Shown here one piece after another: positions 1-4,468 of a stretch of DNA of 64,000 nt. The DNA comes from Escherichia coli (GTDB taxonomy: Bacteria; Pseudomonadota; Gammaproteobacteria; Enterobacterales; Enterobacteriaceae), in assembly GCF_003334765.1 (NCBI RefSeq), contig NZ_QOWT01000001.1. The stretch is one strand, 5' to 3'. Under the pieces are notes generated by a model. It was not told the DNA's origin. It saw only the letters and a program-made list of their open reading frames with translations, and ran no database searches. The position numbers and the translations under genes are program-made. Position 1 is the first letter of the stretch. Every line of letters starts with the position of its first letter.

Positions 1-1
1 G

Positions 2-43
2 CGTCGCGGTAAAAAGAATTACTGTCTGATTTGCTGGAAATAA
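2..43 (+). CDS. tyrS: tyrosyl-tRNA synthetase, 3' end only (partial at window edge)
   Basis: nt 2-43 translate to RRGKKNYCLICWK then TAA, matching the TyrS C-terminus as recalled; pdxY follows as in K-12. Confidence 0.7.
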   Translation, partial: RRGKKNYCLICWK

Positions 44-58
44 TGCATTAAGTGGAAA

Positions 59-90
59 GGGGGAGTGAGAAATCACTCCCCCTGGTTTTT
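59..90 (+). terminator. hairpin plus T-run between tyrS and pdxY (terminator or attenuator)
   Basis: perfect 10-bp inverted repeat gggggagtga/tcactccccc with gaaa loop, followed by tggttttt. Confidence 0.5.
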
Positions 91-101
91 ATACAGGGAA
101 C

Positions 102-965
102 ATGATGAAAAATATTCTCGCTATCCAGTCTCACGTTGTTTATGGTCATGCGGGTAACAGTGCGGCAGAGTTTCCGATGCGCCGCCTGGGCGCGAACGTC
201 TGGCCGCTGAACACCGTTCAATTTTCTAATCACACCCAATACGGCAAATGGACTGGCTGCGTGATGCCGCCCAGCCATTTAACCGAAATTGTGCAAGGCA
301 TTGCCGCCATTGATAAATTACACACCTGTGATGCCGTATTAAGTGGCTATCTGGGATCGGCGGAGCAGGGTGAACATATCCTCGGTATCGTCCGTCAGGT
401 GAAAGCCGCGAATCCGCAGGCGAAATATTTTTGCGATCCGGTAATGGGTCATCCGGAAAAAGGCTGTATCGTTGCACCGGGTGTCGCAGAGTTTCATGTG
501 CGGCACGGTTTGCCTGCCAGCGATATCATTGCGCCAAATCTGGTTGAGCTGGAAATACTCTGTGAGCATGCGGTAAATAACGTCGAAGAAGCGGTTCTGG
601 CAGCGCGCGAACTCATTGCGCAAGGGCCACAAATTGTGTTGGTTAAACACCTGGCGCGAGCTGGCTACAGCCGTGACCGTTTTGAAATGCTGCTGGTCAC
701 CGCCGATGAAGCCTGGCATATCAGCCGTCCGCTGGTGGATTTTGGTATGCGCCAGCCGGTAGGTGTTGGTGATGTGACGAGCGGTTTACTGCTGGTGAAA
801 CTGCTTCAGGGGGCAACGCTGCAGGAGGCGCTGGAACATGTGACCGCTGCAGTCTACGAAATCATGGTGACCACCAAAGCAATGCAGGAATATGAGCTGC
901 AAGTGGTGGCTGCTCAGGATCGTATTGCCAAACCAGAACATTACTTCAGCGCAACAAAGCTCTGA
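102..965 (+). CDS. pdxY: pyridoxal kinase 2
   Basis: 287-aa [22 protein letters not shown]..., PfkB-type kinase; position between tyrS and gstA. Confidence 0.93.
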
Positions 966-1008
966 AATATCTCATTTCGGCCCACAACGACCTGTGGGCC
1001 GATGGCTA

Positions 1009-1614
1009 TTACTTTAAGCCTTCCGCTGACAGCGCGTCTTGTACTTCCGGACGTTCAGCCATACGTTGCATAAATGCTGCAATGTGCTCTAACCCTTCCA
1101 GATTCAGTTTCACCGCGTATGCCCAGCGCAGAACCGTAAACAGATAGGCATCAGCAATTGTAAATCTTTGCCCGCAGATCCAGTGCTCATCCTTCAGTGC
1201 CTCGTTCACATATTGCAGCTTCTTCTCCAGCTGCGCGCGAACTGTCGGTTTGTACTCTTCCGGTGTATCAGGGCGAAACAGAGGTGTGAAACCTTTATGC
1301 AGCTCGGTGGCGATGTAATTCAGCCATTCGATGGTTTTATAGCGGGAAATACTGTTTACCGGTGCCAGCAACTGGCGGTCGGGGACGCTGTCGGCAAGAT
1401 ACTGCATAATCGCTACGCCTTCCGTCAGCAAAGTACCGTCATCCAGCAGCAATGCAGGCACCTGCCCCTTAGGGTTAACGGCAAAGTAATCGTCACCGTT
1501 TTCGAGACGTTTTTTCATTAAATCCACGCTGACGAGGGTAAAATCCTTTCCGCTCTCACGCAGGGTGATATGGGAAGCGAGAGAGCAGGCACCCGGTTTG
1601 TAGAACAATTTCAT
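1009..1614 (-). CDS. gstA: glutathione S-transferase
   Basis: 201-aa [28 protein letters not shown]...; GST fold. Confidence 0.93.
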
Positions 1615-1664
1615 CGGTAACTCCTTTTGTCTGTGGTTTAAAGTATGGTAGTGCGTTGCTGAAC

Positions 1665-1697
1665 AAAAAAAAAGCCGCTAACGAAAAGTTAGCGGCT
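1665..1697 (-). terminator. rho-independent terminator downstream of dtpA
   Basis: hairpin agccgctaac/gttagcggct followed on the minus strand by a 9-nt U-run, just after the dtpA stop. Confidence 0.6.
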
Positions 1698-1719
1698 TGT
1701 AAAAGAGTTTCCCTGAATT

Positions 1720-3222
1720 TTACGCTACGGCTGCTTTCGCCGCTTTGTCTGCAGCGTCATCCTGCGTCATGCGGTGCAGTTTCGGCGCGGTCAGCAGCAT
1801 CAGTACTGCAATAACGGCAGTAGCGACACCAATCTGCAAGAATACGCGACCATAGACTTCCAGTGACATCAGCGGATCGGTAACGTTATCCGGCACAGCC
1901 ATCATACCCGCAACATAACCACCAATCAGGTTTGCACCGGCAGTGGTCAGGAACCAGCTACCCATAATGAAGCCCATCAGACGCTGCGGAACGAGTTGAG
2001 CAACCATTGCCAGACCCAGACCAGAGATCATCAGTTCCCCGATGCTCTGCAGGCCATAGCTTGCGACCAGCCAGCTTACAGACACGATACCAGCGTCAGA
2101 CGCGAATTTCGCACCCAGCGGCAGAATCAGGAACGCACCAGAACACATCACCATGCCGATTGCAAACTTGGTTGGCATCGGCAGGGTATCGCCCATCTTG
2201 TTATAGATAGCGGCCAGAATCGGACTACCGATGATGATCCAGAACGGGTTCAGTGCCTGATACTGCTCAGGTTCTACGGCCAGACCCAGAATGGAGTGCT
2301 CAACGTTACGAATCGCAAAGAAGTTCAGTGACGTTGGCATCTGGCTGTACAGCACGAAGAAGATAATGGCTTCGAGCATCAGGATGAAGGCAACGATCAT
2401 TTTACGACGCGCAGCACCTTTCATCGCGAAGGCTTCTTTACCGAAGATAACCACGATACCGAAGGCAACAACGCCCAGCGCCATACGCGCAACTTCCTGA
2501 TTGTGCAGCAGCCAGGTGGCGATAGCGATCAGTGCCACAACACCAATAATGGTCAGCAGCAGGTTACGGTAGTTGATAGGCTCGAAGTCTGGTTTTGAAC
2601 CGTACTGTTTAACCCAGCGTTGGCAGAAGGCGAAGTTAACGATAGTGATCAGCAGGCCTACAACGCTCAACGCAAACGCAACACTCCAGCCGTATTTCGC
2701 GGCCAGCCACGGCGTAGCAATCATAGAGAAGAAAGAGCCGATGTTGACGGACATGTAGTACATGGTGAATGCACCGTCCAGACGCGGGTCGTTTTTCTCA
2801 TAGCATGTAGAAAGCAGAGAAGACGGGTTAGCTTTAAACAGGCCGTTACCGACCGCAATAGCCGCCATACCCATATAAACGATACCGGCGTCGTGACCAG
2901 ACCAGGCAACCAGAGCATAACCAATCGCCAGCACAATAGCGCCGAGCATAATTACGCGTTTAGTACCCAGTACCTTGTCACCTAACCAGCCGCCGATAGC
3001 GACCAGACCATAAACCAGGGCACTAAAGGAAGAGAAAAGGGTGATTGAATCCGCTTCAGACATACCCAGTTGTTTAACCAGGTAAACAGCCATAATTCCT
3101 TGTAGGCCGTAATAACCAAAACGTTCCCATAACTCAATCGAGAAGATGAGATAGAACGCCTTCGGTTGTTTGAAAGCGTTCAAACTGACGCTTTCAGTTG
3201 GTTTTTGGTTTGCAGTGGACAC
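1720..3222 (-). CDS. dtpA: proton-dependent di/tripeptide permease (POT family)
   Basis: 500-aa [30 protein letters not shown]..., multi-TM POT transporter. Confidence 0.93.
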
Positions 3223-3806
3223 TTTTACCTCTTTTTTTACATCCCATATTAACGGGGGTGCTTTCTCGCGTTATGTATAAAAAACATACGCGCAATTGTT
3301 ATAGTGGGAGGGGAAACGGCAGGTAATGTTCACTATCTTGCACTTTCAGACAAGTCCTTTGTAATAATCTGTTACATATAACTGAGGCGGGGAATTCAAC
3401 CATTCCGGGAAATGTTATCCAGCGTTAAATTTTTCAAAAAACGTAACGGCAGATTTTTTCACTGCACTGAGAGGGGGGTGATGGCTTAACGGCGATATGT
3501 TCTGCTATTTAGCGTTTTTACTAGTGAGATAGTCCAGTTTCTGAAAAATAGCCAGTGTAATGTTTTGTAGGTCAATATTTGTTGCGTGTGTAAATTTAAA
3601 TGATTTTAACCTGATTCTTGCAATGTTTTTACATTGCGACAGCATCGTGATCTTGATCACGAATGAATAGAAAATTTCGCTATTAAAAAAACAATTAACC
3701 TGCATTTTTGGTTATCCGCAAACGGATTACCTGATGATAACGCTAAGCAATGGCATCATTGACGTTAAAAAGATGTTTTAAAAGAGGATAAAGAAAGGTT
3801 ATCAAT

Positions 3807-3834
3807 GGGGTAATCGGTGTTACCCCTTTTCTTC
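3807..3834 (+). terminator. hairpin plus T-run abutting the nth stop (bidirectional terminator candidate)
   Basis: ggggtaa/ttacccc stem with tcggtg loop followed by ttttcttc on the plus strand; overlaps the nth stop codon. Confidence 0.4.
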
Positions 3835-4468
3835 AGATGTCAACTTTCTCTTTGTATTCACAAAGATCTTCAATAATACAAGAGCCACAGCGGGGCTTGC
3901 GGGCAATGCAGGTATAACGCCCGTGCAGGATCAACCAATGGTGGCAGTCGACTTTAAACTCTGCTGGAACCACTTTCAGTAGCTTTTCTTCTACCTGTTC
4001 GACGTTTTTCCCCGGCGCAAATTGAGTACGATTACAAACGCGGAAAATGTGCGTGTCGACAGCAATAGTCGGCCAGCCGAATGCAGTGTTTAATACGACG
4101 TTGGCTGTTTTACGACCTACGCCGGGCAGGGCTTCAAGCGCAGCACGATCTTCCGGAACCTCGCCATTATGCTGCTCCAGCAAGATACGGCAGGTTTTGA
4201 TGATATTTTCTGCTTTGCTGTTATAAAGCCCAATCGTTTTGATATAGGTTTTCACCCCTTCAACGCCCAGTTCAAGCATCGCTGCAGGCGTATTCGCCAC
4301 CGGGTAGAGTTTCGCCGTCGCCTTATTAACACTGACATCGGTCGCCTGAGCGGAAAGCAGTACGGCAATCAGCAATTCAAAAGGCGAACTGAAATTAAGC
4401 TCGGTGGTGGGATGAGGATTGTTCTCACGCAGGCGAGTGAGGATCTCCAGGCGTTTTGCTTTATTCAT
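3833..4468 (-). CDS. nth: endonuclease III
   Basis: 211-aa [27 protein letters not shown]..., C-terminal 4Fe-4S Cys cluster; last gene of rsx-nth cluster. Confidence 0.93.
   Translation of the reverse strand: MNKAKRLEILTRLRENNPHPTTELNFSSPFELLIAVLLSAQATDVSVNKATAKLYPVANTPAAMLELGVEGVKTYIKTIGLYNSKAENIIKTCRILLEQHNGEVPEDRAALEALPGVGRKTANVVLNTAFGWPTIAVDTHIFRVCNRTQFAPGKNVEQVEEKLLKVVPAEFKVDCHHWLILHGRYTCIARKPRCGSCIIEDLCEYKEKVDI

Follow-up and report, generated by a model that had tools for sequence, protein, structure and literature searches.

The 58-nt spacer that separates tyrS from pdxY in Escherichia coli carries a stable hairpin which in all probability (about 0.9 in our estimate) is a leaky intrinsic terminator, placed inside the pdxH-tyrS-pdxY operon and lowering pdxY relative to tyrS. 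The locus lies at the beginning of the stretch of 64,000 nucleotides that was analyzed, hereafter the window. RNA polymerase coming from either the pdxH or the tyrS promoter would transcribe a G/C-rich hairpin that begins 14 nt past the tyrS stop codon. Some polymerases would release the RNA in the adjacent U-tract, giving rise to 3' ends at window positions 87–92, and the remaining ones would read through into pdxY and stop at a second hairpin, located between pdxY and gstA, near 1006–1009. As release at the first hairpin is partial, and no promoter was detected for pdxY, the level of the pdxY mRNA should be set at a fixed fraction of that of the tyrS mRNA. Rho is probably not needed in the process, and the read-through fraction is best viewed as constitutive. 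A terminator/attenuator has already been described for this operon, and the hairpin is a standard member of the class of intrinsic terminators. We take it to be the "Rho-factor-independent attenuator between tyrS and pdxY" (Lam & Winkler 1992; Yang et al. 1998). No difference from the published attenuator was noticed, locus and organism being the same and the window being here 100% identical to K-12 strains. The name pdxH-tyrS-pdxY operon is used in PMC10933106, which cites both the 1992 and the 1998 paper.

The elements of the region, in window positions, are the following.

1–43, plus strand: 3' end of tyrS (tyrosine--tRNA ligase); the TAA stop codon is at 41–43, and the translation ends with ...RRGKKNYCLICWK before the stop.
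58–83, plus strand: terminator hairpin, made by a 5' arm (58–68), a GAAA tetraloop (69–72) and a 3' arm (73–83).
84–92, plus strand: U-tract region GGUUUUUAU, with five U residues at 86–90 and a GG interruption beside the stem (U-G-G-U5).
87–92, plus strand: published RNA 3' ends from three data sets, inside or just past the U-tract.
93–101, plus strand: ribosome-binding region of pdxY, CAGGGAAC, located outside the hairpin and unpaired with it in the folds.
102–965, plus strand: pdxY (pyridoxal kinase 2; b1636), an ORF of 287 aa probably reached only by read-through.
977–1009, no strand assigned: region of the hairpin TCGGCCCACA-ACGACC-TGTGGGCCGA (977–1002), between the convergent genes pdxY and gstA, where read-through RNAs end.

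Window positions are converted into MG1655 coordinates by subtracting them from 1715991. The spacer (44–101) corresponds to residues 1715890–1715947 of the MG1655 minus strand, and abuts tyrS, which is b1637 in the RefSeq annotation (1715948–1717222, minus strand). The genes gstA, dtpA and nth follow, in this order, on the opposite strand beyond pdxY. Many E. coli genomes, K-12 derivatives included, match nucleotides 1–1100 of the window at 100% identity, and have the genes annotated as tyrS, pdxY and gstA; the names tyrS and pdxY, given to the upstream and the downstream gene in a previous reading made from the sequence only, were right. Of 5426 complete genomes of E. coli, 5421 carry the segment of 106 nt surrounding the hairpin at an identity of at least 99%. 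Two ATG codons stand in tandem at the beginning of pdxY, one at 102 and the other at 105 (window 102–107). In most other genera the alignment of the orthologues begins at the second methionine, so that translation may really start at 105. The CAGGGAAC region at 93–101 is the likely Shine-Dalgarno sequence of the gene.

One of the 5426 complete genomes, that of E. coli strain PRO_A-1028-6W-A_ESBL (NZ_CM136177.1), hosts an IS200C element directly after the T-tract of the terminator (...CCCCCTGGTTTTT-IS200C-ATACAGGGAACATG). The element spans residues 1560–2295 of the extracted locus (L082), with tnpA at 1715–2173, and is inserted at the point corresponding to window 90/91, leaving pdxY separated from the promoters of both pdxH and tyrS.

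The modules of the spacer are arranged in the order A58, GGGGGAGTGA (59–68), GAAA (69–72), TCACTCCCCC (73–82), T83, GGTTTTT (84–90), ATACAGGGAAC, and the ATG at 102. The perfect 10-bp stem and the GAAA loop described in the sequence-only reading are both there, residues 59–68 pairing with 73–82; addition of the A58-U83 pair gives a stem of 11 bp, 7 of which are G-C. The tail that had been written as tggttttt is found at 83–90. Counting from its last base, the A of the pdxY start codon is 12 positions further on, with 11 nt in between. Residues 44–101 fold at –23.5 kcal/mol, whereas dinucleotide shuffles average –12.9 (sd 2.5; z = –4.18), and none of 200 shuffles was as stable as the spacer. 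The hairpin is kept in a context of 201 nt, in both minimum-energy and centroid folds, and is the best match of a terminator scan across window 1–4000; the GGTTTTT stretch (84–90) satisfies the threshold of the scan, at least 5 T residues in 8. No antiterminator, or other competing fold, was found in the 201-nt context, in which the upstream sequence is tyrS coding sequence. An Rfam scan of residues 1–2000 (E ≤ 1), T-box, leader and riboswitch families included, gave no match overlapping 44–101.

The same scan yielded a spurious lncRNA match, and a sub-threshold match to sroB at 1665–1749 on the minus strand (31.8 bits vs a gathering score of 44; E = 0.093). The latter overlaps a strong terminator hairpin located past dtpA (1698–1672, followed by T9), and probably denotes a mere resemblance to a terminator.

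Three other identities of the tyrS-pdxY hairpin were considered and rejected. Membership in a repeat family is at odds with the presence of a single copy: a 24-mer spanning the hairpin is found a single time in the window of 64 kb (chance expectation, 0). A chance hairpin is incompatible with the shuffles, the conservation and the 3' ends observed in vivo. A bidirectional terminator is rejected as well, since the complementary strand lacks a T-run after the stem, and there is no convergent gene.

Conservation was analyzed in the Enterobacteriaceae, taking one genome per species in which PdxY was found. Among the 80 loci obtained, tyrS lies directly upstream of pdxY in 79; these and the window make a set of 80 spacers, mostly 52–90 nt in length. 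A hairpin is present at the same position in all 80 spacers. An automatic test, looking for a hairpin followed by at least 5 T residues in the next 8 nt, was passed by 78 of them, while the two others (L004 and L026) have a single mismatch in the stem. The stem comes in several versions. One, GGGAGTGA-GAAA-TCACTCCC, is found in Escherichia, Salmonella, some Citrobacter and Kosakonia; another, GGGGCGTGG-GAAA-CCACGCCCC, is that of most Citrobacter, Enterobacter, Klebsiella, Raoultella and Kluyvera. Compensatory variants restricted to a single lineage have been identified in Leclercia (CATGG/CCATG), Pseudenterobacter (GCGCGG/CCGCGC) and Enterobacter sp. Bisph1 (GAGCGA/TCGCTC). In a Cedecea-like clade an unrelated hairpin, AGCACGGC-TTAT-GCCGTGCT, followed by T8, resides at the same place.

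In a loop-anchored gapless alignment of the 46 distinct sequences, two-sided changes were observed in 7 of 11 pairs. Paired cells amount to 91.5%, and drop to 40–68% when the 3' partner is slid by 1–3 columns; the observed covariation score was reached by no shuffle. As a loop-anchored alignment leans towards the hairpin, the test was repeated on whole spacers with unanchored MAFFT/RNAalifold. The same helix was the only consensus structure obtained, with compensatory changes in 6 of 10 pairs. Structure, rather than sequence, thus appears to be kept among the relatives.

Compared with the 75 loci from other genera, the E. coli element combines a poor U-tract (weighted T score 2.2 vs a median of 3.9) with a stem that ranks among the more stable (–20.0 vs a median of –18.8 kcal/mol). 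The U-tract is weakened in Escherichia species, where it reads TGGTTTTT or TGATTTTT, and is of the TTTATTTTTT type in most other Enterobacteriaceae. The leak may hence be set differently in different genera. An imperfect U-tract next to the stem fits incomplete termination. Sites at which read-through is low have a better-defined poly-U (PMC6131387). The spacer of Enterobacter sp. BIGb0383 (L056, 1796–1950) is peculiar in length, 208 nt vs the usual ~60, as an insert of ~150 nt, with inverted ends (AGCCTGTCCCATTAGGC ... GCCTAATGGGGCAGTC), is found upstream of the conserved hairpin; the insert may be a small mobile repeat.

RNA 3' ends have been mapped at the hairpin in three independent published data sets. 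In the Term-seq analysis of MG1655 (Adams et al. 2021, PMC7815308, supplementary file 1) a "primary" 3' end, its read score being 41,205, is assigned to tyrS at 1715904 on the minus strand (window 87). This end makes one entry only in a curated list spanning three growth conditions, so that efficiency or detectability at the site may be condition-dependent; judging from its position in the file, the entry probably belongs to the LB OD 0.4 sheet. The bicyclomycin data of the same work list no Rho-termination region at 17159xx. SMRT-Cappable-seq of cells grown in M9 medium (Yan et al. 2018, PMC6131387) places the termination site at 1715903 (window 88) for RNAs from two start sites, and labels it "novelTTS", the reference set of the study giving no known terminator as the nearest one. 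The TRS analysis of RNAtag-seq/term-seq data (PMC10687069) reports one terminus at 1715901 (window 90) and another at 1715899 (window 92), with corrected p values down to 1e-204 and site class "alternative primary in TU"; the R statistic (1 minus local read-through) is 0.89–0.97 at the tyrS site. The tyrS-pdxY site is absent from the TERMITe supplements. The mapped ends lie 5–10 nt past the last G-C pair, a spread that fits intrinsic termination plus some trimming. That 3' ends should occur near position 90 had been anticipated from the sequence, and ends at 87, 88, 90 and 92 bear this out.

Yang, Tsui, Man and Winkler are said to have stated in a 1998 abstract that pdxY is completely cotranscribed with tyrS. 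Reportedly, the same authors found that ~92% of the tyrS transcripts stop at a putative Rho-independent tyrS/pdxY attenuator. Long reads allow stopped and read-through RNAs to be assigned to their start sites. The two start sites lie on the minus strand of MG1655, outside the window. Of the reads that begin at 1717286, the tyrS promoter, 66 stop at 1715903, 10 more stop no further than 50 bp beyond it and 181 pass; for 1718034, the pdxH promoter, the corresponding figures are 139, 18 and 166 (PMC6131387). Full tyrS-pdxY and pdxH-tyrS-pdxY molecules end at 1714985, i.e., window 1006 (PMC6131387). According to these SMRT-Cappable-seq rows, molecules sharing one start site either stop at the hairpin or run through pdxY, and the attenuation of tyrS read-through, suggested at first from the hairpin, is in this sense observed. 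Within the M9 sample the apparent read-through at the tyrS terminator varies with the promoter of origin. In our own assessment, the long-read method may over-count long molecules. Termination amounts to ~26–43% in the M9 long reads (PMC6131387), vs ~90% according to the TRS statistic and to the reported RNase mapping, figures that are not directly comparable given the possible bias towards long molecules and because R is not a true efficiency.

Read-through appears as the route to pdxY. A scan of the tyrS coding strand, suited to sigma-70 consensus promoters and not to weak or non-sigma-70 ones, found no promoter-like site, and no long-read start site falls at 17160xx–17165xx in the tables examined; the conclusion agrees with both results. 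The 58-nt spacer itself is occupied by the terminator. Downstream, the primary 3' terminus of pdxY has been mapped at 1714982 on the minus strand (window 1009), and the gstA termini at 1715016–1715019 on the plus strand (PMC10687069). Since termini on both strands fall in the 977–1009 region, the hairpin located there appears to be a bidirectional terminator, albeit one that lacks a clear T-run.

The sequence-only reading had proposed that the hairpin modulates pdxY expression. This holds for the partial block. Modulation in a regulated, condition-dependent sense is a candidate only, and we consider it unlikely that the efficiency of the element is actively tuned by the growth medium, the promoter of origin (pdxH or tyrS), the ribosome that terminates on tyrS 14 nt before the hairpin, or the B6 status of the cell. 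The figures that invite such a view are the read-through of ~54–73% in M9 long reads, to be set against TRS values of 0.89–0.97 in other libraries, but method biases could account for differences between data sets. The two start sites, moreover, differ within one sample in the proportion of reads passing and ending, the site is found in only one of three condition lists (PMC7815308), and read-through dependent on conditions and start sites is known at other E. coli terminators (PMC6131387). In 72 of the 80 spacers the first G-C pair lies 12–17 nt past the end of tyrS, counted from its stop codon, so that a terminating ribosome would adjoin the hairpin; the kept spacing, however, may merely reflect close relatedness. 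Against active tuning stand the lack of an antiterminator pairing that competes with the hairpin in the 201-nt context, and the lack of a match to riboswitch or leader families. If efficiency were regulated, one and the same transcription unit could supply PdxY in amounts uncoupled from those of the essential TyrS.

The mapping of 3' ends cannot separate termination from exonucleolytic trimming to a stable hairpin, which limits the reading of the above data as termination. It could be argued that polymerase does not stop at the hairpin at all, and that the latter is a processing or stability element which blocks 3' to 5' exonucleases and protects the tyrS mRNA. Methods of the Term-seq type register all 3' ends that are stable, the hairpin has a very high stability, and the spread of the ends over 87–92 indicates that some trimming occurs. 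A U-tract, needless for a pure exonuclease block, nevertheless follows the stem in 78 of 80 spacers, also when the stem sequence is a replacement, the ends at 90–92 are 8–10 nt past the stem, the canonical distance of release, and intact read-through molecules reach the pdxY terminator. The conserved U-tract and the position of these ends argue for true termination. We regard a pure stability role as very improbable, and the 3' ends as most likely generated by termination rather than by trimming.

That the main role of the hairpin is played on the read-through mRNA, by shaping how ribosomes reach the binding site of pdxY located 10 nt downstream, is hardly credible: the end of the hairpin precedes the Shine-Dalgarno sequence and the start codon by 10–18 nt, and CCCUG (80–84) is complementary to CAGGG (93–97), but the C-rich arm is in every fold engaged with the G-rich 5' arm, a much stronger partner, CAGGGAAC is free of the hairpin, and the hairpin lies at a distance from the pdxY start which, depending on the genus, ranges between 16 and 46 nt.

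The preferred reading, a leaky intrinsic terminator, is in line with the features of known systems. As canonical intrinsic terminators, the element has a G/C-rich stem of 10–11 bp, a GNRA-type tetraloop (GAAA) and a U run, is located just past a stop codon, and gives 3' ends in the U-tract. It differs from them in that the U-tract is interrupted (U-G-G-U5), and in that a co-transcribed gene follows, rather than the end of the operon. Partial terminators which set gene ratios inside operons are exemplified by the rplL-rpoB attenuator and by the terminator found before dnaG in rpsU-dnaG-rpoD. As in these operons, the tyrS-pdxY element is flanked by genes of the same orientation, no promoter was detected for the second of them, and stopped and read-through RNAs share start sites; unlike the case in these comparisons, no modulator of read-through, be it a factor or a signal, is known or was detected. 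In Bacillus and other Firmicutes tyrS is controlled by a T-box leader. The only trait shared with T-box, leader-peptide or riboswitch attenuators is the association of a terminator hairpin with tyrS. The tyrS-pdxY hairpin is located downstream of tyrS and not in a leader, and features neither a T-box or riboswitch match in Rfam nor an antiterminator fold. The element is unrelated to the tyrS T-box leaders of Firmicutes.

A leaky terminator at this place would account for the production, in E. coli and its relatives and from one transcription unit, of much less PdxY, a kinase of B6 salvage, than of the essential tyrosyl-tRNA synthetase. The element adds nothing new to biology, and makes a clean, conserved textbook case of a leaky terminator residing within an operon.
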